Shown here: one piece after another, positions 628 to 62,942 of the stretch
How positions within the stretch are numbered: position 1 is the first letter of the stretch
Layout: every line of letters begins with the position of its first letter
Origin: a virus
Taxonomy: Duplodnaviria > Caudoviricetes
Length of the DNA: 64,000 nucleotides
Virus record (IMG/VR): IMGVR_UViG_3300001528_000378
Coordinates: 64,001-128,000 of that record
Strand: one strand, 5' to 3'
Notes under the pieces: model-generated
Database searches by the model: none
Told to the model about the DNA's origin: nothing
The model's input: the letters and a program-made list of their open reading frames with translations, nothing else
Translations under genes and position numbers: made by a program

Positions 628-927
628 CTATTTATCCTCACTATTAATTAAATTCTGTAATGGGTACTTATCATAAGGGAACTTTGGGTCAAAATCCAAT
701 TCTGCTGTAAAGTTCCATCTATCTTTAACACCAGTAGTTTTTACTTTGCAAAAAACAGTTACTCTTTGGTTCAAGTTTTTAAGTATACCTCTTTCAATAT
801 TTCTAAGAGTAGATTCTGGGATATCAAAAGATGAGGTTATGGTTACTACATTACCATACCTATTGCGCCCCACTAAGGTTGTACAACCATTTGTTAGGGC
901 CTCTACAAACTTTTTTGTATTATTCAT
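628..927 (-). CDS. hypothetical protein
   Basis: ORF track 628..960; ATG at 927 overlapping the upstream stop is the likelier start. Confidence 0.6.
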   Translation of the reverse strand: MNNTKKFVEALTNGCTTLVGRNRYGNVVTITSSFDIPESTLRNIERGILKNLNQRVTVFCKVKTTGVKDRWNFTAELDFDPKFPYDKYPLQNLINSEDK

Positions 928-3061
928 TATTTCTATTCTCCCATTCTTTTCTAAAATCAATTAGAGACATATCACTATAATAGTTATCAAAAGCATATCT
1001 TAAAATTGATTTCATTTTATCGTCATCTTTTAGGTTATTAATATCCTCAATATTTAACTTATTATTAATAATCTTTTCAAGATATGAGCGAACTTTCTTC
1101 CAGAATTTATAATAGGGAAGTTTAATTTTTAACATCCTATTGTTTCTGTCTCTGATAACATATCCTTCAATCATATAATCATTATCTTTTAATTGCCATA
1201 GTACATGATCAATATCGTGGTCACATTCTATACAATACATATATTTTCTACAAATTACAAATTTACTAGTTACTTCACACAATTCATTATAAGAATATGG
1301 TTTAAACTCAAATTCATTTCTGATAATGTCTAATAGGCATACTTGTTTTTCTTCATACTCAATAATATGACTATCATGTTCTGGATCAATAACTTCAAAC
1401 ACAAATGTAACATTATTATCTTTTAAGTATTGTTTTAGCTCATTAGTTAAATAATGTTTATCTTCAAGAATTTGTTTGAACCAATCTTTATAATCACCAT
1501 AATCAACGGACTTGGTAGCAATAAAGAAGTCATCAGTTTTAGGATTATAAGACAACAACCCAAGATACCCATTTTCTTTATAACTGATGTCAAATGGCGG
1601 TTCAAATTTTTGTAATTGCTCCTTCGTTAACTGGTCTTCATTAAAAAATTTGTCATAACTACGTGCTACAATCTTGCCAGTTTCGCTATCAATGAATAGA
1701 CCTCTTGCTTTACAAGTTAATTCGTCCCATTTCTGTTTATAAAAGGCTTCTCTGGTAAAGTTATAGGACACAATACCATTATCAAGATATTTCTTTTTAA
1801 CTAGGTCGCTATTATTTAATTGTTCAATAATCTGTTTTTCGTCTTTCGTATCATTTTTAGGTTCGTTAAACTGCTCAACTCTCGTTTCTTTACCATTAGA
1901 AATTAATACATTTAATGGCTCATTGTACTCAACCTCAGAGTTTAAAGCATAAAAAGTTTCGCCAAATTTAATTTTAGATGCTTTTCTATGTCCACAAACT
2001 TGGATACTACCATTGTTGTCATTAACATACTTGTTAGCCACATAATCGATATCTTCATATTCTCCAACACCTTTAATATAGTTGTTGGCAGAGTGGAACA
2101 AACTAAGTTCATAGTAAGGGATTCCAGCATGATTAATGCAAAAATATTGATTATCTACACTAACAATAAAGTTGGTTTTTAGTTTACTTAAAAACAATTT
2201 AATTTTGTCCTTTGAGATATCCTTAATTTGTTCGTATGTTTTACCTTTAAATTCTTTGGATCTAACGCTGTCTAGACCAAAATAAACATAATCTCTTAAA
2301 TGTCTTTCATGGTTACCTTCACAAAAGTGAAAGTTACTTCTGTCACAGTTATAGATTAGCCATTCAAGTGTTTCTTTGTTGTAACAACCTCTGTCAAGAT
2401 AGTCGCCTACAAAGAAATAATCTGTATGCTCATTATAGGGGTGTTTTTTAAAGTATTCGCCTACTTTATCAATTCTACCATGAATATCAGAAAATATAAC
2501 AATATTTTTTGCAGTAATAAGATTTAAACCATCAATTCCAATATCATGCCAAATATTATCACCATAATTTCCTTTTACTCTATAGTAATCAATATAGTTT
2601 TCACCAAAGGTGTCAATGAACCATTGTTTGGAATTTTCTAAATTTTCACACATTCCTTTAATAACTTCCTCAGAAACAATTTTATAGGAATCTCTTTCTC
2701 TATTTTGTTCAAGTAATTTATCATAAGAAATAGACGAAAAGTCAACACAAACCGCTCTATATTGATAAACCTTAGCCAATTCTAGAAATTTAGTTACAGA
2801 TGACTGCTTGGTATTTGTAGCATCAATAATGGTAGTATCACCATTTTGCATACGGATTTCAAGCAATTTATAAAGAAGTTCAAATACTCTCTTATTAAAT
2901 CTTTGCGTAATATAGCTATTCCCATCCTTATCCATATATATAGATGAGAACATAAGTCTAATTTTATCTGTAGAAAGAGTTAAATCCTCTAATCCATTAT
3001 CTTTAATAAAAGTAGTCTTGCCAGAACCAGGGGCTCCATGAAGAATAACTAATAATTTCAT
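920..3061 (-). CDS. polynucleotide kinase / metallophosphatase / Rnl1-type RNA ligase fusion (RNA repair)
   Basis: P-loop GAPGSGKT with IIDATN; phosphoesterase DIHG, GDYLDRG, GNHE; ligase KENG, FEVI, EGYV, KIK; start at MKLL behind GGAGGG. Confidence 0.9.
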   Translation of the reverse strand: MKLLVILHGAPGSGKTTFIKDNGLEDLTLSTDKIRLMFSSIYMDKDGNSYITQRFNKRVFELLYKLLEIRMQNGDTTIIDATNTKQSSVTKFLELAKVYQYRAVCVDFSSISYDKLLEQNRERDSYKIVSEEVIKGMCENLENSKQWFIDTFGENYIDYYRVKGNYGDNIWHDIGIDGLNLITAKNIVIFSDIHGRIDKVGEYFKKHPYNEHTDYFFVGDYLDRGCYNKETLEWLIYNCDRSNFHFCEGNHERHLRDYVYFGLDSVRSKEFKGKTYEQIKDISKDKIKLFLSKLKTNFIVSVDNQYFCINHAGIPYYELSLFHSANNYIKGVGEYEDIDYVANKYVNDNNGSIQVCGHRKASKIKFGETFYALNSEVEYNEPLNVLISNGKETRVEQFNEPKNDTKDEKQIIEQLNNSDLVKKKYLDNGIVSYNFTREAFYKQKWDELTCKARGLFIDSETGKIVARSYDKFFNEDQLTKEQLQKFEPPFDISYKENGYLGLLSYNPKTDDFFIATKSVDYGDYKDWFKQILEDKHYLTNELKQYLKDNNVTFVFEVIDPEHDSHIIEYEEKQVCLLDIIRNEFEFKPYSYNELCEVTSKFVICRKYMYCIECDHDIDHVLWQLKDNDYMIEGYVIRDRNNRMLKIKLPYYKFWKKVRSYLEKIINNKLNIEDINNLKDDDKMKSILRYAFDNYYSDMSLIDFRKEWENRNNE

Positions 3062-3072
3062 TTTAAACCCTC

Positions 3073-3246
3073 CTATACTCTTGATGTCAAATGATAACCT
3101 AAACATTCTTGACAAAAATAGATTCTCAAATTTACTTTGCGCTTCTTATGGATTCTATTAATAGCTTCTTGCGCAAGTTGTTCAGTTTTATAACGTTTCT
3201 TTTTTAAACAAGAAGAAACTAAACTCTTTAATTGTTCCTCAGACAT
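3073..3246 (-). CDS. 57-aa putative Zn-binding protein (not in ORF track)
   Basis: MSEEQLKSLVSSCLKKKRYKTEQLAQEAINRIHKKRKVNLRIYFCQECLGYHLTSRV; TAATG coupling; paralog at 22333-22512. Confidence 0.8.
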   Translation of the reverse strand: MSEEQLKSLVSSCLKKKRYKTEQLAQEAINRIHKKRKVNLRIYFCQECLGYHLTSRV

Positions 3247-7190: not shown

Positions 7191-7732
7191 TTAGTCATCT
7201 CCTTTACTCTATTTTTAATCTGCTCGAGTCTTTCAGGTGTCTCACCACTCACAAATAATACTTTTTCTTGTGGGATAAATTTACAAGTAGACTGAAATGC
7301 CTTATCAATGCTTTCTTGAAATTTCTTATCAATAGTTCTTACACCATCATCAAACATTTCAAATTCAATAGGGCAATATACATACAGGTCTATATCATCA
7401 ATATTATCCAAAAAATAGGACTCAATGGTTCTAACACATAATTCAGATACTTTGGAATCTTGCTGTGTACTAATAACCCAAGCATAGATAAAGTTATCCC
7501 ATAGGCATCTATCTGTTACCATATTTTTATAAGTAAGATGTTTTAAATGTAGAGCACACATAGCCAACTGTGAAGCGTCCGTAGCACCCTCATTAATGGG
7601 AAATCCCATCCTGCTTACTTCCCTTACCGCTTCTGGAAAGAACTCATATCCAGAAAATAGAGGGTCAGAATACATCTTACTATATAGTGAAGTCTTACCC
7701 GTATTGTGGCTACCAACCAATGCTATTCTCAT
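7187..7732 (-). CDS. P-loop nucleotide kinase (AAA_28 type)
   Basis: GSHNTGKT, EAVR, TDRCLWD, DDGVR. Confidence 0.8.
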   Translation of the reverse strand: MRIALVGSHNTGKTSLYSKMYSDPLFSGYEFFPEAVREVSRMGFPINEGATDASQLAMCALHLKHLTYKNMVTDRCLWDNFIYAWVISTQQDSKVSELCVRTIESYFLDNIDDIDLYVYCPIEFEMFDDGVRTIDKKFQESIDKAFQSTCKFIPQEKVLFVSGETPERLEQIKNRVKEMTK

Positions 7733-9969
7733 TTTTTGAATCTCTCCCAGTCTTTCTGTGATTTATAATTGCCAAGCGTGATATCACCAAACTCTTTACG
7801 AATTTTGTTTACTTGGGATAGGAACTCCTTTGATTTACTATCATCCATATAGACATTCTTCATAAGATATTCCACCATCTCTACCATTACAGGCTTACAA
7901 GTAGTAATAATTGCATTAGCTTCCTGGGCGGCGTCTTTTAATAACTCTGCTACACCTGTTTGTATACTCTCATCAAACACAGTTAAACTACTACCAGCAG
8001 ATAGTGAACTTTCAGAGGAGTTACTAGATACACCATTTCCACCAGAACCTCTGTACCCGAATTTTCTTGCTAGTGTTAGAGCTAATGAGGTAGCTTCTTG
8101 CAAATCCATATAGCACCCAGCAGATAATAATCTTTCACCAAATACAATGGATTCTGCCTCTCTACCACCCAAAGTCATAGAAATATTGGATAACATATAC
8201 TCGTGCAACATACCAATTTCTTGCTCCACTTCCTCTGGAATATGTGTACTCGTCCATGCACCTGCACTTGTAGATAAAGGAGCCATATCAATGGTGGGGG
8301 CGATACCTACCTTGTACATAAACACCAAAGCGTGTCCGGCTTCATGAATAGCAGCTCTTAATCTAAATCTTCCACCACAGTCCTCTTCCTTTTCGGATAC
8401 TTCCAACAAGAGTTTCTTTTTAATAATATTCTTACCAATAGTAGCTATTAATTCCTTTGACTTCTCATCAATAGTAAAATTAATAGACTTACCTATGTTA
8501 CACCCACAAATTTCATACACAATTCCACCTATCATACTATCTAATAATGACAGTAAGGGTCTGACACCCTGTGTCGGGAATACTCCATTTTTATACACCA
8601 CATTAGTAAACTCTTTGGAAAAGGTAGCAGTACATCCATACTGCTTTTTCACATTAGAGGTTATTTTATCAATATGGTCCTTAATAATTTGATTGTATGC
8701 TTTCTTGGTTAGAGTAGGATAAATCAAGTGAACCATACCCAGCCTAGAAATTTGTTCTGGACGCAAACTATCTAATAATACTTGCTTTAAATCATACCAT
8801 TTTAATTTGCTATTAACTTCGTGCACATAGTCCACATCTTTATAAGAGAACATAAAGTCTTTAGAATTTTTAAATAATGTGTCCTGATTACCTGCAATAA
8901 TAACAAGTAAGTTTTTGGCTTGCAAGGCATTATCGATATCCGTTCTCGCTAGAGTAATTGCTTGTTCTTTTACTTGTTTGATAAGACTTGCATAATTTCC
9001 CTTTTTAAGGGGTTTAAAAAACACCGACTTAAATGTCTTATGTAGCTTTTCTAACTCAAAATCCATATTAATTTTCATGGTCATATAAATGGAATTATCG
9101 TGAGAAATTTCGCACAAGTCTTTAATAAAAGCAAGCATATCTTCAACAGAATAATTTTCATTCCAGTAATGATCATTAACTTGAAACTCAAACATGTTGT
9201 CAATGCTTCCAGTGCTAGATTCAGGATACGCAGAGCGAATAATATAATTGTCATTTTCATTATAAGTATCCATACGGCCCCTCCATAACTTCATTTGGGT
9301 ATACTTCTCTACACCATATACTTGTTCTGCATCTTTAGTCATAAAGGTATCTAATGCCGTAGTGAACTGTCTGTGCATCATAGTCCATAAATCAAAAGCA
9401 GAACTAAACAATGAATCTATCTTTTTGAAGTATTCTTCACGAGTATAGAACCTGCCATCAGATAGTAGAGTCCATAAATCTTGATAGGGAGTGTCCTTAA
9501 TACTGACACCATCCTTATCAATAGTCTGCATATTTTGAAATTCATCAATAAAAATACATAGATTATTTCTTGCCGAATTAACTATGGAGGTCACCTGACC
9601 CAATACAGTATGTTGATACTTATTACTAGAACTTTCATTGGTCATAGTAATTTCAACAAGTTTATCAGATACACCTAGTTCTTGCATTAAAAGTCTAACC
9701 AAGGAAGTTTTACCTAAACCAGTCATAGACCACATATTAACAATGGTGGGTCTATTAGGTATGGTTGTACCTAAATACCATGAACTAATATTGTCAATAA
9801 GAGCATCTATCTGTTTATCAATACCACGATATGCCTTTTTAAGTTTATTCTTTACACTAATAAGGCGTTTCTGCTTTTCTTCATTTGTTAAGTGTGGAGC
9901 AGGATTGGTTGACACACTACTCCCCTGTAATGTCACTTTCTGCTTCCCACATGCAATTCTCACTGGCAT
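7729..9969 (-). CDS. AAA+ ATPase fused to M41 (FtsH-type) zinc peptidase
   Basis: TGLGKT, IFIDEFQ, GVRPL; HEAGH, LGGREAE, GCYMDL; no transmembrane segment. Confidence 0.85.
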   Translation of the reverse strand: MPVRIACGKQKVTLQGSSVSTNPAPHLTNEEKQKRLISVKNKLKKAYRGIDKQIDALIDNISSWYLGTTIPNRPTIVNMWSMTGLGKTSLVRLLMQELGVSDKLVEITMTNESSSNKYQHTVLGQVTSIVNSARNNLCIFIDEFQNMQTIDKDGVSIKDTPYQDLWTLLSDGRFYTREEYFKKIDSLFSSAFDLWTMMHRQFTTALDTFMTKDAEQVYGVEKYTQMKLWRGRMDTYNENDNYIIRSAYPESSTGSIDNMFEFQVNDHYWNENYSVEDMLAFIKDLCEISHDNSIYMTMKINMDFELEKLHKTFKSVFFKPLKKGNYASLIKQVKEQAITLARTDIDNALQAKNLLVIIAGNQDTLFKNSKDFMFSYKDVDYVHEVNSKLKWYDLKQVLLDSLRPEQISRLGMVHLIYPTLTKKAYNQIIKDHIDKITSNVKKQYGCTATFSKEFTNVVYKNGVFPTQGVRPLLSLLDSMIGGIVYEICGCNIGKSINFTIDEKSKELIATIGKNIIKKKLLLEVSEKEEDCGGRFRLRAAIHEAGHALVFMYKVGIAPTIDMAPLSTSAGAWTSTHIPEEVEQEIGMLHEYMLSNISMTLGGREAESIVFGERLLSAGCYMDLQEATSLALTLARKFGYRGSGGNGVSSNSSESSLSAGSSLTVFDESIQTGVAELLKDAAQEANAIITTCKPVMVEMVEYLMKNVYMDDSKSKEFLSQVNKIRKEFGDITLGNYKSQKDWERFKK

Positions 9970-10237: not shown

Positions 10238-10266
10238 ATTATACCATATAATTATTTATTTGTCAA
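10238..10266 (-). promoter_or_regulatory. sigma70-type promoter
   Basis: TTGACA-17-TATAAT. Confidence 0.8.
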
Positions 10267-11523
10267 GCCCTCCCATAAAGGGTGTTTTTTAACCATATCG
10301 TTAACAATATCAGTATAATATGTGTCCTCTTTCATATTGCCAAGTACAACATCTGCAATAATGTTTGCTAACACTTTGCAATCACTCTCATTAAAACCAC
10401 GAGTAGTAACAGCTGCCGTTCCAATTCTAAGACCAGAAGTTTCACTCTTAGGTCTTTTATCAAAAGGAACTGCATTTTTATTTGTAATAATACCCAAAGA
10501 AGTAAGTTTATCTTCCACTTCCTTACCACTCTTATTGTATCTTTTTAAATCCAGTAGAATCAAATGATTATCTGAACCACCAGATACCATATCAATTCCA
10601 CGGGAATTAAATACTTCCACCATCGCCCTAACATTGCTAAGTACATTTCTAATATAATCTCTAAACTGAGGTCTTAATACCTCATCCATAGCAATACCTA
10701 CAGCAGAAATCATGTTCTGTAATGGGCCCCCATTTAAACCGGGGAATACAGATTTGTCAACCAATTTTGCCATCTCTTCATCATTTGTGGTAATAATTGC
10801 ATGCCTAGCCCCTCTAAGTGTTTTATGTGTGGTAGAAGTTATAATTACATGTGCTTTTCCCCAGTCATAATCTAATGGATGCTGATGCTCCCCAACCGCA
10901 ATAAGACCCGCTATATGAGATATATCACACAAGACAATAATATTTTTATTAGAAGTCTTAACTATACTAGAAATCATGTCATATCTCAGTTCCCTAGGAT
11001 ATGCACTGAACCCAATAACAAGAACCACAGGACCTGCGACTTTATCAAGGGAGTTCTTGAGTTCACTATAATTGAATAATCCATTATCAGATTCAAAGGT
11101 ATATGTATTAAACCAACTTCCTGTAATTGATGCTATAGACCCATGCGTTAGGTGTGCACCTGAATTTAGTGAGTGTGATATAATAGTTAAGTCGGTAGGT
11201 TTACACTTAAAATACTTGGTTGCTGCAAGATATACTGCTAAATTAGCAGATGATCCACTGTGCGATTGAACATTGCTATACTTGGTATTAAACACCTTAC
11301 AAACTAATTCCCTAGTAATACTCTCTATTTTATCAACTATTTCACACCCACCATAATATCTTCTACCAGGATATCCCTCAGCATATTTATTTTGAATGCA
11401 ACTCCCACATGCTGCCAACACATCATCAGAAGCATAGTTTTCAGACGCAATTAATGAAATTTCATTATTCTGTCTTTCTTTTTCTTCATTTAATAATTTT
11501 TTAATGTAATGAGTATATGTCAT
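10252..11523 (-). CDS. glyA: serine hydroxymethyltransferase
   Basis: LIASEN, NKYAEGYPGRRYYGGCE, HLTHG, SHIAGL, TTHKTLRG, SGLRIGT. Confidence 0.97.
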   Translation of the reverse strand: MTYTHYIKKLLNEEKERQNNEISLIASENYASDDVLAACGSCIQNKYAEGYPGRRYYGGCEIVDKIESITRELVCKVFNTKYSNVQSHSGSSANLAVYLAATKYFKCKPTDLTIISHSLNSGAHLTHGSIASITGSWFNTYTFESDNGLFNYSELKNSLDKVAGPVVLVIGFSAYPRELRYDMISSIVKTSNKNIIVLCDISHIAGLIAVGEHQHPLDYDWGKAHVIITSTTHKTLRGARHAIITTNDEEMAKLVDKSVFPGLNGGPLQNMISAVGIAMDEVLRPQFRDYIRNVLSNVRAMVEVFNSRGIDMVSGGSDNHLILLDLKRYNKSGKEVEDKLTSLGIITNKNAVPFDKRPKSETSGLRIGTAAVTTRGFNESDCKVLANIIADVVLGNMKEDTYYTDIVNDMVKKHPLWEGLTNK

Positions 11524-37626: not shown

Positions 37627-37713
37627 GTGTCGTTGCCAGAATCGAACTGGCTCAATCGTCCTACGTTATAAACATCATCGGACATTTGCGTGCTACCATT
37701 ACACCAAACGACT
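37627..37713 (-). ncRNA. tRNA-like RNA with non-anticodon central arm, copy 1
   Basis: GTCGTT/AACGAC acceptor, GTGT-AATGGTA-GCAC D arm, GCCAG-TTCGATT-CTGGC T arm; centre GTCCGATGATGT..ACGTAGGACG shared with copy 2. Confidence 0.85.
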
Positions 37714-37717
37714 AAAA

Positions 37718-38173
37718 CTATAAAATGTTAATACAGTATGCCAAACAGATATCTAAAAAAAATGCAACAAGATTTGCTGATACTACATCTAATGGCCAGT
37801 GTGCTTTTACATATACTCTAGTCCATGCACAAGCCCAAGCAAGTAATATAAATGGTATGCACACCCATAATGGCTTTACAAAAAATAAAACATAATATGC
37901 TGGTAGGGCTGCACTCATTGCATGCCCAGACAAAAAACTCTCCCCATCTTTATGTGAATATCCATGAATATAAAGTACATGCTCTTTTGAATCACGTGGT
38001 CTTGGTGCGTCAAAAATACCTTTAAGTATTTGTACAATTATATTACCAATAAGATAAACAACTACAAAATAAACTAGCTCTCTTACCCCACGTAAGAAAT
38101 AAATAACTGGGAGTGCAGATACTGGTAATAGTATGGTTAGAACATCACCCAATTTTTTAATAATATTTTTCAT
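37718..38173 (-). CDS. PAP2-family membrane phosphatase
   Basis: K-x5-PRP, SFLSGH, TRVYVKAHWPLDV. Confidence 0.9.
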   Translation of the reverse strand: MKNIIKKLGDVLTILLPVSALPVIYFLRGVRELVYFVVVYLIGNIIVQILKGIFDAPRPRDSKEHVLYIHGYSHKDGESFLSGHAMSAALPAYYVLFFVKPLWVCIPFILLAWACAWTRVYVKAHWPLDVVSANLVAFFLDICLAYCINIL

Positions 38174-38182
38174 AAATTAGAA

Positions 38183-38291
38183 TGCCTGTTTGTGGTCACT
38201 GGAACAGGCAATCCAGCAAATAAGGTATGGAGGTGCTCTACCCTGACCAGTAAGACTCGTACTACCTAGTTTTAAGTAGCGAACGTCCTAC
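38183..38291 (-). ncRNA. candidate pseudoknotted RNA
   Basis: GTAGGAC/GTCTTAC hairpin; TGGTCA/TGACCA enclosing two hairpins; loop TGCCTGT complementary to downstream ACAGGCA. Confidence 0.6.
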
Positions 38292-38298
38292 AAATATA

Positions 38299-38370
38299 TC
38301 AGGAACGTGGGCACTGCCCCCACCCCATTCGGCCCCAAACCGAATATGCTACTGTCAACACCTGTTCCTG
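38299..38370 (-). tRNA. tRNA-Pro(TGG), atypical D/T loops
   Basis: CAGGAAC/GTTCCTG, TTCGG-TTTGGGG-CCGAA, T arm GTGGG-GGCAGTG-CCCAC. Confidence 0.85.
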
Positions 38371-38435
38371 TAAATAAAACAACATATCTTGTAAATCTAT
38401 AACAACATACTACAATATTTTTAGAACATTGTCAA

Positions 38436-39005
38436 CTACTTTTTTATAACTTTAAATCTATCCCAATCAACACGTACTGGAGTTGAATGCTCTTCTGTTG
38501 CCTCAAGAGACTTACGGAGTTTATCTTCTGGGGATAAAGTTTTATCTTTACTCAACCAATACAAAGCACCTTTTGCAAAATCCATACCACAACCAGCTTC
38601 ATCATAGCCTCTTGTATCCTCTAACACAGAGAAGTCTGCTTGTACATGATATAGTTTGCCCTTATAACCCAAAAGGAAATCACCACCGGTTTTCTTACCA
38701 TTCTCACTGTGGGTATGTTCCGTAGACAAAAACCCCGAACAATCAAAGGTTCGCATAATAGATGGTATAACCATCTTAACTAAATATTGTAAATCATCTG
38801 TGCAAGTTTTTGGCCTCTTTGGTTGTTTCCAATCGTATTGCAAAATTTGTCCCATCCTAAATGATCCACAATAACCAACAATAAAGTCACCATTAACAAA
38901 CACTTTTTGATTATTATAGTGTAAATCGGAGTAGCCATCAGAACCCATATGGTCTCCCGCCATATACACGTGTTTCTTTTCAACAAAACCAACTATACAA
39001 GTCAT
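38436..39005 (-). CDS. HslV/proteasome-beta-like Ntn peptidase
   Basis: N-terminal Thr MTCIVG, AGD, KVF, GYCGS, AGCG..AKGAL. Confidence 0.8.
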   Translation of the reverse strand: MTCIVGFVEKKHVYMAGDHMGSDGYSDLHYNNQKVFVNGDFIVGYCGSFRMGQILQYDWKQPKRPKTCTDDLQYLVKMVIPSIMRTFDCSGFLSTEHTHSENGKKTGGDFLLGYKGKLYHVQADFSVLEDTRGYDEAGCGMDFAKGALYWLSKDKTLSPEDKLRKSLEATEEHSTPVRVDWDRFKVIKK

Positions 39006-39008
39006 TTT

Positions 39009-39290
39009 GCACCTCTATTATACGGATTATTCAACACTGACAAATTGTACATTACTATACAGGAGTAAGTCCATGTAACAATATATTCAATAAATAGTTT
39101 TTGTCATAAAGATACTCTGGTTTTTGAAACGTGGTTGCCCAGAAAACACGAAGCCGTAGCTTTAGGATACCGTAGCCTATCGTTGCGTTCACTTAACGAC
39201 CTGATCGCACCTCAGCCCGGGCCGTATGGTGTACCAACCTCTAGAACTAATAAAATTATACGGAAGACGGAGGTGCTAAACAAGCTCTAA
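39009..39290 (-). ncRNA. structured leader/ncRNA between tRNA-Ser and the peptidase gene
   Basis: GCACCTC/GAGGTGC and CCGTAT/ATACGG stems; no ORF. Confidence 0.5.
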
Positions 39291-39315
39291 CTAACTAACT
39301 ATATTCCTATAAATA

Positions 39316-39412
39316 TGGCGGTGAGGGTGGGATTCTAACCCACGAACGAGAGTATTAATCCCGTTGCTGAGGTTCAAGCTCAGTGCGATAAAACAGGCTC
39401 CGCCACCTCACC
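39316..39412 (-). tRNA. tRNA-Ser(TGA)
   Basis: CTGAG-CTTGAAC-CTCAG, long variable arm, G73, encoded CCA. Confidence 0.92.
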
Positions 39413-39415
39413 AAA

Positions 39416-40094
39416 TTAACAATAGTGTCTGCGTTTCTTGTGGTCACTCTTCTTATTTTTACTTTTGTATGTTGGTAATTGACTATCACAGTTTGAACAT
39501 AAATAAAACTTATTTTTATTTTTCCTTCTTTGAAATCTATATAGAGTTTATACCTTTTACATTCTTTGCAAAGTTCGGCCTCTGTATACCTTATTCCACA
39601 TCCTTTGCATAAACGTGTATGATGCCTACATGATTTTGCTGTACTACCTGTATACCATATTCTTTCTTTTTTCGGTTTTGATTTCTTATTTATAACTGAT
39701 ATCAAAACACGGTTTAACTTATTTATATAGAAATCAAACCCTAAATATTCTATACTACGTTTTCTAATAAGGTTTATACTTTCTGGTTTTTGTTTTCTCT
39801 TATGAGCACATTTTTGTGAACAAAACTTACCAGACCCAAACCATTCTGATACCAGTTTTCCACATGACTGGCAAGTATAGGCACAATTCTTTTTCTAAAA
39901 CTAATCAGGTGTGTCTTATAAGACCCACCCTGCGCTGTTACTTCCTTCCCACAACATTCGCATATCCTTGTTCCATACACTACTGGTTTGTGTATACTCT
40001 TAACGTGATTCGCCACATCTGTTGAACGTTCAAATAATATGCCACAATATTTACATTTATACGTATTTACAAAATAAAACCAACATGCTTCCAA
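39416..40094 (-). pseudogene. degenerate zinc-finger/HNH endonuclease
   Basis: Three frames join: YKCKYCG.., TCQSCGK..FGSGKFCSQKCAH.., LCSNCDSQLPTYKSKNK; HNH core missing. Confidence 0.7.
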
Positions 40095-40098
40095 AAAT

Positions 40099-40443
40099 CT
40101 ATTCCTCTACATCGCTGCATATCTCACTGTGCGTTAATTTCATATTATACTTTGCCAAAATTAAATTATAAAAATATATTGGAAAAGTATACTTGTTATT
40201 AAAAACACTATTATTCAGTTCATTAACCGGAATTTCATTCTGAAACTTTTTCAATTCACCCAAAAAATCTTTAGAATAACATGTTTCTAATAAACAATCT
40301 ATATACTCGCATACGTCACCTTTTATATCTTTCTCTTCCATTTTCGTTTTGTCATATTTCCATTCTTTAATAAGAAATTGACAGCCATAATAAGTAGTAT
40401 TAGTTGAATATAACCTAAACGCAAACATAATAAATTTCCTCAC
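40099..40443 (-). CDS. hypothetical protein
   Basis: ORF within tRNA region. Confidence 0.5.
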   Translation of the reverse strand: MRKFIMFAFRLYSTNTTYYGCQFLIKEWKYDKTKMEEKDIKGDVCEYIDCLLETCYSKDFLGELKKFQNEIPVNELNNSVFNNKYTFPIYFYNLILAKYNMKLTHSEICSDVEE

Positions 40444-40455
40444 TTTATTTTTTAT

Positions 40456-40611
40456 TTCAATATGCCAATTAGTTACTCGTGGTTTCCACTGCAGTGTTTG
40501 TTCACTAATCGCTCTTTGCTTGTTGTACTTAACATGTAATTAGTCTGTAGCACTCTATATGTACCTAGCACGTTTCTGACATATAGCAATCAACTTTCGT
40601 TGAATATTGAA
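40456..40611 (-). ncRNA. candidate multi-helix ncRNA
   Basis: TTTCAATAT/ATATTGAAA closing stem with four internal hairpins. Confidence 0.55.
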
Positions 40612-40623
40612 ACAAAATCTATA

Positions 40624-40696
40624 TGGAGCTGATCGGGTTCGAACCGACGACCCCCTGCTTGCAAAGCAGGTGCTCTCCCAACTGAGCTACAGCCCC
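40624..40696 (-). tRNA. tRNA-Ala(TGC)
   Basis: GGGGCTG/CAGCTCC with G3-U70; CCTGC-TTTGCAA-GCAGG. Confidence 0.96.
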
Positions 40697-40705
40697 TAAA
40701 ATCCG

Positions 40706-40792
40706 TGCCCACCCTTGGACTTGAACCAAGACAAGCGTCCTACGTACTAATTACATCATCGGACTTGTGCGTGCTACTTACACCAAGCGGGC
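40706..40792 (-). ncRNA. tRNA-like RNA with non-anticodon central arm, copy 2
   Basis: GCCCGCT/GGTGGGC acceptor, GTGT-AAGTA-GCAC, CTTGG-TTCAAGT-CCAAG; same invariant centre as copy 1. Confidence 0.85.
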
Positions 40793-40796
40793 AAAA

Positions 40797-41445
40797 TCCA
40801 CTGGAAAGTTAAACCCTTATACTCTCATAGCCCTATAAAAGGGCATCATATTTTAGCGATACTGGTCGCAAGGGAATTTAGATCACAGTGGTGTTCCCAG
40901 AAGCAATTTATCTAAGAACAAAGACACACCAACTGTGGTATGTGTGTGCCCCAACCAATAGTTCTTTACACTAGTTTTATAAGTACCACTCTTTCCTTCT
41001 AATGTCCACGGACTATTACGTGAGTCATTCAGACCATAAGCTATCCTTTCGCGGTAGCAGCTAGATCGGTTTCTAAGGCACCTAATCCGGCCCAGGTTGA
41101 GTTTTTAGTGTGGCTCAGCCTCATGTACATGGTTCGGCCTAAAAAGGACCATTCGGTGCATTTTAGGCCCAGGAATGTGTATGGTATTACACACCCTAAC
41201 TGTGCATCTTCTACGGGGTTTAACCGCAATTTCGGTAGCGGTCCTATGGTTCGCCAAGCTCACAGGGGAGCATGGGTTTCCTTGCGGTTCAAGGCATAGG
41301 ATGCGATTGTTCCTGGAAGAACAGGATTTCGTCACCAACGTTTATTTTCCCCTACACAGTTTACTACACTAGGAGGTAGTTTTAGGTCATAACTCCACGG
41401 ACCCCAGCTTCTCTGCTGGAACTGCAAAGCGCACTTCGCAGTATA
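40797..41445 (-). ncRNA. candidate large ornate ncRNA (~650 nt)
   Basis: GC-richer, no credible ORF, at least 12 consecutive hairpins, flanked by tRNA-type genes. Confidence 0.7.
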
Positions 41446-41454
41446 TTTACTAAA

Positions 41455-41539: not shown

Positions 41540-41568
41540 ACTATACTAAATTATTTTACTTTTGTCAA
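41540..41568 (-). promoter_or_regulatory. RNA-island promoter
   Basis: TTGACA-17-TATAGT; spacer near-identical to 42253-42281 and 43993-44021. Confidence 0.8.
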
Positions 41569-41922: not shown

Positions 41923-41944
41923 ATATTCTCCTTAAAAGTATTAA

Positions 41945-41975
41945 CAGTTGTTCTAATCGATTGAGCTATAAGCGC
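41945..41975 (-). pseudogene. 5' half of a tRNA (Arg-like)
   Basis: GCGCTTA TA GCTC AATCGATTA GAAC A ACTG, then breaks off. Confidence 0.6.
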
Positions 41976-42064
41976 GAAATCTTCTTGTGTGGTTTACTTA
42001 TAATACATCAGGAACAACATCCCTCCGTAAATATAAATATAAATAAACAGATATAGATTTTTAC

Positions 42065-42192: not shown

Positions 42193-42421
42193 GTCTTACT
42201 CACTTATTCATTTAAGCACACAAAACTTTCAAATATCAATTTACTTCTTATATATATACTAAATTATTTTACTTTTGTAAAGTATAAATCCTGCCAGATT
42301 TCACACCACTCTCCGGCTAAGCGTAGGGCCTATTTAGGTACCTTTTGCCATATCTATAATGTCGCGCTAGGCTTTACCCTATCGTGCGAGAGTGTTATAT
42401 TGACTAACATAACAAATTTAT

Positions 42422-42445
42422 TGCGCCCACAAGGACTTGAACCTA
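42422..42445 (-). pseudogene. 3' part of a tRNA (T arm plus acceptor strand)
   Basis: AGGTTCAAGTCCTTG TGGGCGC A directly after the endonuclease gene. Confidence 0.6.
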
Positions 42446-43291: not shown

Positions 43292-43387
43292 TGGCAGGTA
43301 CTGGACTCGAACCAGTAACACGGTCTTATCTGGGCCGCGCTTTACGGGGTTATAAATCCCGCCCTTTAACCATTAAGCTAACCTGCC
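43292..43387 (-). tRNA. tRNA-Ile(TAT) with long variable arm
   Basis: GGCAGGT/ACCTGCC A, loop TTTATAA, variable arm GCGCGGCCCAGATAAGACCGTGT, TTCGAGT. Confidence 0.85.
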
Positions 43388-59714: not shown

Positions 59715-62700
59715 TTATTTTTTATCTGCTTGCTTTAAATCGACAAACTTGCGCCTCTTAAACTCCCAGTCACGACGAACAGGGTTCCAGTCCTCAACTT
59801 TTGTAAAAAATCCAATTACACGAGAATAGTGGTCAAAGGATTTGTTACCACATTTAGGACAAATACTTGCATTTCCAACAACAACATTGTGGCACTCTCT
59901 ACACTGACTATATACTACATTAATAGCAAAGTGTTCACAACCACACTCAACTGCATGTAGAATAATATTTTTAGCCTGAGCGGATGTTACCTTACTATTT
60001 GCTTGAGCATGAACAATACCACCACCAGACAATAATTGGTTATATTTTCCATCTATATCTAACCTTTCATAAATAGTTGCATCATGCCATAACGCACAAA
60101 ATTGGTTTGCATACAAGGGGTCTAAATTATATGGATTACCATAAATTAACTTATCTGCATCAGCCAAACGAACTCCAAAACTTTCAGCAGGGATTTGCTC
60201 CACATTAAAAATAATACCATTTTCTTTAGAGTATTTTCTGCACATCTCATTAAACTTGACTAGAATATCACCCATATAATCAAAGTCATTTTTACCATAC
60301 TTTTGTAAAATAATTTGCTGTGCTTCAACAATACCAAGAACACCAAAAGTGCTAAACATATGACTCATGTTAATCCAACCATTTTTTAAAAATGGTTCTA
60401 ATCCAATAGCACTTAATTTTTTAATTAATACTTTATGTGCCTTTAAAATTTTTGCAGCAGATTCCACACGTTTATCCAATAGTTTCAAGTACTCATCATA
60501 ATTATTGGTTTCATACGCCAAACGAGTAAAATTAATTGTAACAACTCTATGTGATCCAAGAGAAATATTACTACCACCAAAACTATTAACCGAAGCACCC
60601 ATATCCATTAGTTCTGTGTTATTTATCATCCGGCAATTATGCGTAATAATACCATTTGCAATTTGGAACAGGTGATTGTCATTTTCTACTGTAAAATCAT
60701 ACACATGCACACCCTTTTTAGTTTTTATATGTTCAATTTTTTCAATTTGAATACCATAATAGTCACCAAAATCACTTAACACAGTGGATTTAGAAAGAGC
60801 ACCTCTTCCATTTCTCCAATCCTGTAATGGTTTTAATTTAAGTTTATCATTGTGCATAATTGAAATAACACAATCATTTCCATTACTACCATTTCTATAA
60901 CCACATCTAATATTTACAGAGTTTGCAAGAGCAACCAAATCCATACCTAGTTCTTTATTGGCAATATGGATAGATACATAATCACCCCTCATATTATCAC
61001 AAGTATGACCATTACCTTCAATAAAACCCTCTAAAAATCCAATTCTAAAATCATAACTCATATTAAAAATTCTAGAACGTAAACGCTTATCGGTACATAA
61101 GTTCCCAACAAAGAAATCTCTCATTGTAGCATGAGCCATTCTACTATTGATGGATACTCTTGTTGAATTTGGCCAAATGTCAGAAACTGTGACATTGGTT
61201 GTTGCTGCTAATCTATCTTTGGAAAAATTTACTACAAAATCTTGTAGTTCTTTTTCTTCAGTATGAAAGGAAAGTGCAATATCAGTATTACGTCTTATAT
61301 CATACTGACCCTCTGCCCCAAATAACCCTACAAAACGTCCAAAATCGCGGTCACCCCCGAGAATACTATCATAGGAAATATTCTTGGATACAGGAAGCAT
61401 ATCCCCAACTTTTAAGTCATTAGCTTGAACTTCTACCAAAGATCCATTATTTAATACTTTTACAGATGGGTGGTCAAGTGTTGTTGTTATAACTAACCCA
61501 CTTTTCAGAGTCACTTTATTCAAAGTTCTATTTTCATTTAAGATTGAAAATCCATTGGTTATTTTAGTAAAACCATTCGCACCCATAATCTCAATTACTT
61601 TATTTTCTTTGGATTTATCCCATATATCAAATAACTGTTTTACAGTAATATAACGCACATAACCATCCACCCTTGCGATCACTTTTGTTGTTGAAGTTAA
61701 GCAGCAGCTTGCTATTTTCGTACCATAGGAAGTGAAAATATTATACTTGGAAATATCCTTAGTTAGCATATAGGACAGCAACTCATTATCCTTACTTAAC
61801 TCATCTTTTCCTGTCTCTTCATTTTTATGCTTTGAAAAATTTACAGTAACAACAGGAAATCTATAATTAATTCCACCGTTAATTGTATCCCCTTTATCAA
61901 AGAAATCTACAAAGATTTTTTGTAATTCAAACACATAATCTTTTACAAAATTTTTATAGTCTTCATTTGAAAGTTTATATTCTTCCCCACCCAAATTATT
62001 ATCTACACGAACCTGAACTTTATTTGGGAAAAGCCATCCATAGTTTTCATCAGACAAAAATGTATCTAATTTTTCTTTATCAAAAATAGAGATATTTGTA
62101 AATGGGCTTTCATTCCCATTACGAGATAAAAAGTTCACTGAGTGAACAAACTGTTGAAATTCATTCTCAATACGTTTTCTTACTACTTTATCTTCCTTAA
62201 TAGAGGATAAGGGAATACGCTCTTTGTAAATCAATAAGTGAGCACAGTCTGTAAAAAATGAACCAATAGCAACTGCACCAGCCAAATGAGAGGCGAGCTG
62301 GTGCACTGTTTCACACAAGGCAGAAATATAAGAGGATAAACGCTTTGATGGCTTTGAAGGAAGTGTACCAAAATCACGTCCAGTAGTAATTAATTTTGAA
62401 GCATCAATAGCATAGCAATATGGGATCAAAATATTAGAACTATCTGATAGACCCAATGAGAAGTCATACATCTCTCCACATAACCGTTTTGCTTCGTCTT
62501 GGCCATATAATTCTTTCATTGTACGATAAAGCATATCATACCCAATAATTTTATCTGCTGGTAATTCCAAGTCCTTTAAGACACCCTTGATACTCTTCTC
62601 ACCCTTATTAGCATTTGCATCAATAGAGATATCATTGATGTTAGAACTCATATATTTTGAAAACCCATTAATAAAATCAAAATTGTCTTCATGTAATCCA

Positions 62701-62942
62701 TGAATTTTGAGTAAACCGTCAACAATAGATTTTAATTCACCATTTGTTTTACCATATTTTTTCTTTAATGTTTTAACTAATGTTTCTCTGATATTTTTGA
62801 TAGTTCTGGTTGTACCAGCGTCCGCAAATGTTTTATCAGTAATCTTATCTAGTTCTGCTTGATACTGCTTATCATCTAAATCTTGAATATATTTATCATT
62901 ATAATTAACTTTAATAGGCTTTTTTACCAATTCATTTTCCAT
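59715..62942 (-). CDS. nrdD: anaerobic ribonucleoside-triphosphate reductase with intein
   Basis: PYC, ESPFTN, FPVVT, ASC|CR, EQIPAES, CxxC..CxxC, glycyl radical SRVIGF. Confidence 0.96.
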   Translation of the reverse strand: MENELVKKPIKVNYNDKYIQDLDDKQYQAELDKITDKTFADAGTTRTIKNIRETLVKTLKKKYGKTNGELKSIVDGLLKIHGLHEDNFDFINGFSKYMSSNINDISIDANANKGEKSIKGVLKDLELPADKIIGYDMLYRTMKELYGQDEAKRLCGEMYDFSLGLSDSSNILIPYCYAIDASKLITTGRDFGTLPSKPSKRLSSYISALCETVHQLASHLAGAVAIGSFFTDCAHLLIYKERIPLSSIKEDKVVRKRIENEFQQFVHSVNFLSRNGNESPFTNISIFDKEKLDTFLSDENYGWLFPNKVQVRVDNNLGGEEYKLSNEDYKNFVKDYVFELQKIFVDFFDKGDTINGGINYRFPVVTVNFSKHKNEETGKDELSKDNELLSYMLTKDISKYNIFTSYGTKIASCCLTSTTKVIARVDGYVRYITVKQLFDIWDKSKENKVIEIMGANGFTKITNGFSILNENRTLNKVTLKSGLVITTTLDHPSVKVLNNGSLVEVQANDLKVGDMLPVSKNISYDSILGGDRDFGRFVGLFGAEGQYDIRRNTDIALSFHTEEKELQDFVVNFSKDRLAATTNVTVSDIWPNSTRVSINSRMAHATMRDFFVGNLCTDKRLRSRIFNMSYDFRIGFLEGFIEGNGHTCDNMRGDYVSIHIANKELGMDLVALANSVNIRCGYRNGSNGNDCVISIMHNDKLKLKPLQDWRNGRGALSKSTVLSDFGDYYGIQIEKIEHIKTKKGVHVYDFTVENDNHLFQIANGIITHNCRMINNTELMDMGASVNSFGGSNISLGSHRVVTINFTRLAYETNNYDEYLKLLDKRVESAAKILKAHKVLIKKLSAIGLEPFLKNGWINMSHMFSTFGVLGIVEAQQIILQKYGKNDFDYMGDILVKFNEMCRKYSKENGIIFNVEQIPAESFGVRLADADKLIYGNPYNLDPLYANQFCALWHDATIYERLDIDGKYNQLLSGGGIVHAQANSKVTSAQAKNIILHAVECGCEHFAINVVYSQCRECHNVVVGNASICPKCGNKSFDHYSRVIGFFTKVEDWNPVRRDWEFKRRKFVDLKQADKK
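60636..61703 (-). mobile_element. 356-aa intein with LAGLIDADG endonuclease domain
   Basis: Starts CLTSTT, TLDHP block B, VGLFGAEG and LEGFIEGNG, VYDFTV, ends IITHN before Cys. Confidence 0.93.

Follow-up and report, generated by a model that had tools for sequence, protein, structure and literature searches.

The stretch of phage DNA analysed here, called the window throughout, comprises 64,000 nucleotides of the IMG/VR record IMGVR_UViG_3300001528_000378 and spans bases 64001-128000 of an IMG/VR phage genome (G000) that is 158,131 bp long and complete, with repeats at its termini. The G+C content is ~33%, and in this part of the genome every gene lies on the minus strand. A preliminary description of the window, made from the sequence alone, had pointed to two copies of a tRNA-shaped element in which an invariant arm resembling a kink-turn (k-turn) replaces the anticodon arm. 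Both copies lie where they had been described, with the RNA on the minus strand, and our analysis supports that they belong to a real, conserved family of tRNA-shaped RNAs in which an invariant internal-loop motif stands where an anticodon would be. The copies and their parts are the following:

37627..37713, minus strand: copy 1, 87 nt; tRNA model 30.4 bits, R1 100.7 bits, R2 91.8 bits
40706..40792, minus strand: copy 2, 87 nt; tRNA model 25.9 bits, R1 94.6 bits, R2 92.7 bits
37689..37704, minus strand: D arm of copy 1, identical in sequence to the D arm of a phage tRNA-Gln(UUG) (L054:7019-7092, in a related phage)
37635..37651, minus strand: T arm of copy 1, 5-bp stem and 7-nt UUCGAUU loop
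37658..37683, minus strand: arm core of copy 1, GUCC/GGAC stem, 3-nt GAU bulge, G.A, A-U, U.G, G-C, U-A, loop UUAUA
40737..40764, minus strand: arm core of copy 2, equal to that of copy 1 except for the loop AAUUAGU

From 5' to 3', copy 1 opens with an acceptor stem that contains an A1.A72 mismatch and continues with U8, a GG-containing D arm and the long arm; a T arm, whose loop is canonical, and the discriminator C complete it, and CCA is not encoded. Copy 2 has an unlike acceptor stem (G1-C72, discriminator A), a different T stem and a short D loop without GG (G18G19), and shares the D stem and the arm core with copy 1. The cloverleaf is the minimum-free-energy fold of both copies, with a hairpin of 40-46 nt standing in place of the 17-nt anticodon stem-loop. 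The four blocks that the preliminary description had named as identical were confirmed in a pairwise alignment (A1), and, as it had reported, the T stems differ yet stay paired (GCCAG/CUGGC versus CUUGG/CCAAG) and the apical loops differ (UUAUA versus AAUUAGU). Its view of the acceptor stems as fully compensated holds in part: they do differ and are paired, but compensation fails at the A1.A72 mismatch of copy 1. The supposed absence of a variable loop is uncertain, given that every member of the family has six nucleotides, G-(A/C)-U-U-G-(A/U), separating the arm from the T stem; these can be read as tRNA positions 43-48 or, in copy 1, alternatively as pairing with CAA, itself inserted. Two occurrences of the core pattern were found in the window, compared to 0.00 expected from 100 shuffles, and no further one in the 158-kb G000 genome.

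With default settings, ARAGORN called neither copy and the Rfam scan missed both. In sensitive mode, the Rfam tRNA model (RF00005) scored copy 1 at 30.4 bits and copy 2 at 25.9 bits, for a gathering score of 29, and its alignment to each copy needs a 30-nt insert at the place of the anticodon arm core. Apart from this borderline tRNA match, the sensitive scan of both copies matched no Rfam family, in agreement with the earlier statement that no described family was known. Genes of this kind are missed or mislabelled by tRNA finders, and their annotation could rely on a covariance model such as R2.

Pattern scans of IMG/VR revealed a member in a 170.5-kb phage, G001 (L007:3001-3092), and further relatives, obtained via homologs of the neighbouring HslV-like and PAP2 genes, added four sequences. 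The family consists of seven distinct sequences in four lineages, namely the two copies of G000 and five more, carried by related phages of 140-180 kb from animal-gut metagenomes. The four added sequences are located as follows:

L038:9104-9190: ortholog of copy 2
L057:8814-8905: variant of the G001 type
L054:7096-7195 and L063:6196-6295: divergent type, in two phages

Membership is patchy, as R2 detected no member within the 20 kb examined of several other relatives, and in the close relative L038 copy 1 is missing from its site, which is occupied by a tRNA-Pro instead. Scanning IMG/VR with exact and relaxed core patterns, followed by R2, yielded only G001 besides G000, the rest being coding DNA or failing R2. 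Metagenome and prokaryote-genome scans with the core patterns gave chance matches only, and a blastn search against 50,697 GenBank phages found no homolog, the only matches being to tRNA-Ala and to the tRNA-Gln-like 5' part. Two of the chance matches from the metagenome and genome scans, L032 and L052, correspond to an archaeal intron-containing tRNA in which the two short words are present by coincidence.

Comparison of the seven sequences supports the modelled fold. In alignment A5, which contains all of them and 25 modelled pairs, 97.1% of the cells are paired and 13/25 pairs have changed on both sides; when the partners were slid by 1-3 columns as a control, 23-52% were paired. Compensation is seen in the D stem (G-C to A-U) and in the stem below the bulge (G-C to A-U and C-G to A-U), and most of the T-stem and acceptor-stem sequence differs among members. 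In contrast to these diverged stems, 13 nt of the arm, GAUGAUGU/ACGUA (the bulge GAU, then GAUGU, opposite ACGUA), are invariant in all seven members. The arm core is thus preserved across four lineages whose PAP2 proteins are only ~60-65% identical. A covariance model had been suggested as a check, and R2 scores the members at 73-95 bits, setting them apart from ordinary tRNAs, none of which it matched at E <= 1e-4 in 357 kb.

Judged by its sequence, the family looks like a tRNA-Gln duplicate with a rebuilt anticodon arm. The 5' acceptor strand and D arm of copy 1 show 96% identity over 23 nt to an Acinetobacter phage tRNA-Gln. Moreover, the L054 and L063 members lie 0-3 nt after a tRNA-Gln(UUG)-CCA, have U1-A72 as in tRNA-Gln, and encode their own CCA. 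Members share with canonical tRNAs and with the phage tRNA-Gln(UUG) (RF00005) the 7-bp acceptor stem, U8, A14, A21, the 4-bp D stem and the location in tRNA operons, to which the G000 copies add a 5-bp T stem with a UUCRANU loop. They differ from tRNAs in the absence of a 5-bp anticodon stem with a 7-nt loop, in about four extra nucleotides that follow the D stem, and in the bulge and non-Watson-Crick pairs of the 40-46-nt arm; some members are also devoid of G18G19 or of the T-loop consensus.

The arm itself is built in a constant order: the D stem is followed by one nucleotide, about nine stacked positions (3 bp, a small internal loop and 3-4 bp) and the 3-nt bulge, past which come G.A, A-U, U.G, G-C and U-A and then a variable cap. 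The distance from D stem to bulge is constant within one nucleotide among members. The match to k-turn geometry proposed in the preliminary description agrees with the sequence, in which G.A at 1b.1n and A.U at 2b.2n form a non-standard pattern, and the sequence features of a k-turn (canonical (C) stem, 3-nt bulge, G.A at 1b.1n, A at 2b) are present in 7/7 members. In Kt-23, a U at 2n (G.A then A.U) is found more often than any other state, and non-standard k-turns of this sort are bound by L7Ae (PMC3985660). We infer that the arm motif is a non-standard k-turn of the Kt-23 type and that the arm is sharply bent. With k-turns of this type (PMC3985660, PMC5061560) it shares the canonical stem, a 3-nt bulge ending in U, the G.A pair and an A opposite U; the non-canonical (NC) stem is sequence-invariant in the family, unlike that of ordinary k-turns, and the kink here is predicted. 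The bulged strand, AUGAUGU, differs by a single letter from box C (RUGAUGA) of C/D RNAs, but the opposite strand is CGUA, where box D is CUGA, and no guide region exists in the family. A resemblance of the 3' strand of copy 2 to the sarcin-ricin loop was discarded, as it is not conserved in other members.

Family members almost certainly cannot decode. No normal anticodon arm, as defined by a 5-bp stem, a 7-nt loop, U33, a purine at position 37 and the usual distance from the D stem, was found. The apical hairpins of G000 have 3 bp and loops of 5-7 nt, whereas the anticodon stems of natural decoding tRNAs have 5 bp, or 6 bp at most (PMC7609411), and the G000 caps are too short to be anticodon arms. 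Read-through of TAG, TGA or TAA produced no codon-specific gain in G000 or in the loci of its relatives. An in-frame TAG in the ligase gene of G001 was dismissed, since it sits upstream of the start codon.

ARAGORN tRNA calls together with promoter consensus matches place both copies inside promoter-headed tRNA runs:

37717..37744, minus strand: promoter-like site with 10/12 consensus matches (a consensus match only), ending 4 nt before copy 1
41540..41568, minus strand: promoter-like site with 11/12 consensus matches, heading tRNA-Thr, a 650-nt RNA free of open reading frames (ORFs), copy 2 and tRNA-Ala

Copy 1 starts 4 nt past the stop codon of the PAP2 gene and may be transcribed from its own start or by read-through from that gene. 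Copy 2 starts directly after the 650-nt RNA, with tRNA-Ala 9 nt beyond it, and the block formed by these three elements is kept in relatives (contigs from four animal-gut runs; L038). The location of the copies inside tRNA operons makes their processing as tRNAs, assumed in the preliminary description, plausible.

As an explanation, which we consider to have about an even chance of being correct, we propose that the RNA is a non-decoding mimic derived from tRNA-Gln, processed as a tRNA, that presents a k-turn-like module to a host or phage partner and serves as a decoy or adaptor. It would be transcribed inside the phage tRNA operons and released as a tRNA-sized RNA by host RNase P and 3'-end enzymes; as CCA is not encoded in G000, it would have to be added by the host CCA enzyme, and neither G000 nor G001 encodes a CCA enzyme or RtcB. 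The arm would bend sharply at the Kt-23-type k-turn, and the RNA would offer both a tRNA-like acceptor/T/D body and a sequence-specific kinked module at a fixed distance below the D stem. The partner would most likely be a protein, which could be a k-turn binder of the host, an enzyme that handles tRNAs, a defence nuclease directed at tRNAs or a phage factor, and the RNA would act on it as a decoy or adaptor, not as a codon reader. Searches of 30 neighbouring proteins with PHROGs and Pfam gave no RNA-binding candidate. A decoy or adaptor fits with the description of phage tRNA regions as battlegrounds with tRNA-cleaving defences (PMC13096335).

Several observations weigh against this proposal. 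The kink is deduced from sequence rules only, and the GAU GAU repeat permits a second register with the bulge three pairs further on, which RNAfold favours in copy 1. No L7Ae-family protein is encoded in G000 or G001, both of which are complete phages. The tRNA elbow is not kept in all members, as G18G19 are missing from copy 2 and the T loop of the L054 type is non-canonical and 10 nt long, and therefore a partner recognizing the L shape as a whole is doubtful. Finally, the L054 type terminates in a 5-bp stem capped by the loop CUCUAAA, like an amber-suppressor anticodon arm, which the mimic model does not explain; as this arm lies beyond the kink, it could not reach a codon as tRNAs normally do.

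This canonical-looking arm would agree with members being pre-tRNAs with a small protein-spliced insert, in which an endonuclease cuts in or near the GAU bulge and the phage kinase-phosphatase-ligase reseals the product into, for instance, a suppressor or a tRNA-Arg(CCG). Both complete phages do encode a fused kinase/phosphoesterase/RNA ligase, group I introns are present in neighbouring tRNA regions of relatives, and in copy 1 the loop GUCCGA plus the next C would give an anticodon CCG with U33 and A37 (ARAGORN, permissive mode). Intron-containing pre-tRNAs of archaea and eukaryotes are similar in that they, too, carry an insert in the anticodon region and have a 3-nt bulge adjoining a 4-bp helix. 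The possibility that splicing yields a normal tRNA, already considered in the preliminary description, was tried in silico and gave no consistent solution: when each segment of 6-44 nt was removed from every member and the resulting 6591 variants were submitted to ARAGORN, an inconsistent mixture of anticodons was obtained in 3/7 members and no tRNA call in the other four. The CCG solution requires a 5-bp stem that is absent from copy 2, and that of L054 requires two separate excisions. With a single bulge, the motif is not a bulge-helix-bulge (two 3-nt bulges on opposite strands, 4 bp apart), and the splicing endonuclease (PF01974), which was matched in control genomes, is absent from G000 and G001, as is RtcB. 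The bacterial-type promoters, the lack of stop-codon recoding in G000, an invariant core that is unusual for introns, and the frequency of the ligase fusion in Firmicutes phages without this RNA all argue in the same direction and make spliced pre-tRNAs quite unlikely. Less probable still is a Y-RNA-like ligand of a Ro60/Rsr (TROVE) protein, suggested earlier by the similarity of GUCCGA to Y RNAs. The relatives L054, L055 and L063 do encode a TROVE-domain (Ro60-like) protein (L054:626-2278, L055:1857-3485, L063:342-1976), 5-8 kb upstream of the tRNA island and with scores of 29 and 26 bits compared to a cut-off of 23. YrlA-type Y RNAs (RF02553) also resemble the family in joining a tRNA-like module to a protein-binding helix, in occurring in phages and in their link to RNA repair genes. 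However, the RNA occurs without a TROVE protein in G000 and G001, none of the family lies in the 20 kb examined of L055 despite its TROVE gene, and L054 carries a separate YrlA-like tRNA-mimic RNA (2930-2999) of the usual permuted topology beside its TROVE gene. Moreover, the two ends of YrlA lie in its long stem and its acceptor is capped, the topology opposite to that of the family, the partner strand is GGAC here, unlike that of Y RNAs, and neither copy matched the YrlA model (threshold 69 bits) at E <= 5. The link to Ro60 was consequently abandoned as very improbable.

The arrangement of the genes could also mean that the tRNA-shaped body acts purely as processing punctuation, where RNase P and RNase Z cuts would define the ends of neighbouring RNAs such as the 3' end of the 650-nt RNA. 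The position of copy 2 between this RNA and tRNA-Ala, the retention of the whole block in relatives, and the start of copy 1 so close to the PAP2 stop codon would agree with such a role. An ordinary tRNA would do equally well, though, the 13 invariant nucleotides of the arm would be left unexplained across lineages with diverged acceptor and T stems, and no large RNA adjoins the member in G001 and L054, so we regard this role as unlikely. Slightly more doubtful is a charged or ribosome-directed mimic, either aminoacylated for a non-ribosomal use or bound to a translation factor or the ribosome. In its favour, the acceptor stem is intact, one lineage encodes CCA, pairing at 1-72 is weak or mismatched, a trait also of tRNA-Gln and initiator tRNA, and relatives encode ribosomal protein S21, so these phages act on translation. 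Against it, the synthetases for Gln and Glu recognize the anticodon, and none is present here; G3.U70 and a long variable arm, which would allow anticodon-independent charging, are lacking as well, and the discriminator differs from member to member (C, A, U, A). Finally, decaying tRNA pseudogenes with a chance insert could account for the loss of copy 1 in L038 and for the patchy membership among relatives; this explanation is disfavoured and appears very unlikely in view of the compensatory changes in all helices, the invariance of the core despite the divergence of the PAP2 proteins, and the retention of two copies in G000.

If the decoy or adaptor proposal is true, an RNA would be added to the contest between phage tRNA clusters and host tRNA-cutting nucleases, and a tRNA scaffold displaying a functional RNA module, hitherto mainly a design of engineers, would have a natural case. 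More tentatively, the family could represent a broader, undescribed class of phage RNAs for counter-defence or host takeover, in which the tRNA body would provide host processing, stability and entry to tRNA-binding proteins and the swapped-in kinked arm would capture a partner, such as a k-turn protein of the host or a defence nuclease that cleaves tRNAs. In that case the L054 type would be an intermediate, with its amber-type anticodon loop held off-axis as bait. Phage T4 encodes species 1 and 2 RNAs, which are small, stable, tRNA-like RNAs of unknown function in its tRNA cluster. Like them, the family is encoded among phage tRNA genes, is tRNA-sized and has no known decoding role; the difference is that no sequence relation was found, the 50,697 GenBank phage records giving no match beyond the tRNA-Gln-like 5' part.

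Several features point to a host of the Firmicutes type for G000. The genome has strong sigma-70-like promoters, its tRNA-Ala resembles that of Enterococcus phages, the kinase/phosphoesterase/RNA ligase fusion is common to Bacillus, Staphylococcus and Lactobacillus phages, and relatives of G000 are present on contigs of pig, bovine and rat gut runs. In the window this RNA repair enzyme, a fused polynucleotide kinase, metallophosphoesterase and T4-type RNA ligase of 731 aa, is encoded at 920-3115 (minus strand); its counterpart in G001 (G001:49059-51260) is 41% identical, and the fusion is widespread in Firmicutes phages.

Other elements were noted as well. The 650-nt ORF-free stretch (40793-41454, minus strand, 45% G+C) separates tRNA-Thr from copy 2; relatives retain it, at L038:8447-9103 and in four gut runs, and it gave no Rfam match, permissive filters included. 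The PAP2 gene (37718-38173, minus strand) encodes a PAP2-family membrane phosphatase that is a constant member of the tRNA island across the phage group, with 46 homologs, mostly on phage-sized contigs. A tRNA with anticodon UAU (Ile, codon AUA) at 43292-43387 (minus strand), detected by Rfam and missed by ARAGORN, has a long variable arm, which is unusual for tRNA-Ile; tRNAs of the same type are found at L055:7732-7825 and L056:6416-6510. A tRNA-Pro(UGG)-like gene (38299-38370, minus strand) with a non-canonical T loop and a D loop without GG was called only in the mitochondrial mode of ARAGORN. Pieces resembling a tRNA 3' half (42420-42445, minus strand) and a 5' half (41940-41977, minus strand) adjoin small endonuclease-like ORFs; they may reflect the disruption or duplication of tRNA genes by mobile genes for endonucleases. 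Group I introns were identified in the tRNA islands of relatives (L007:3124-3312 and L038:11090-11275; Rfam, 59 and 56 bits), one of them directly after the G001 member. Other genes of the window, all on the minus strand, encode an HslV-like peptidase (38436-39005), a serine hydroxymethyltransferase (10252-11523), an FtsH-like AAA/M41 protease (7729-9969) and an anaerobic ribonucleotide reductase with an intein (59715-62942).

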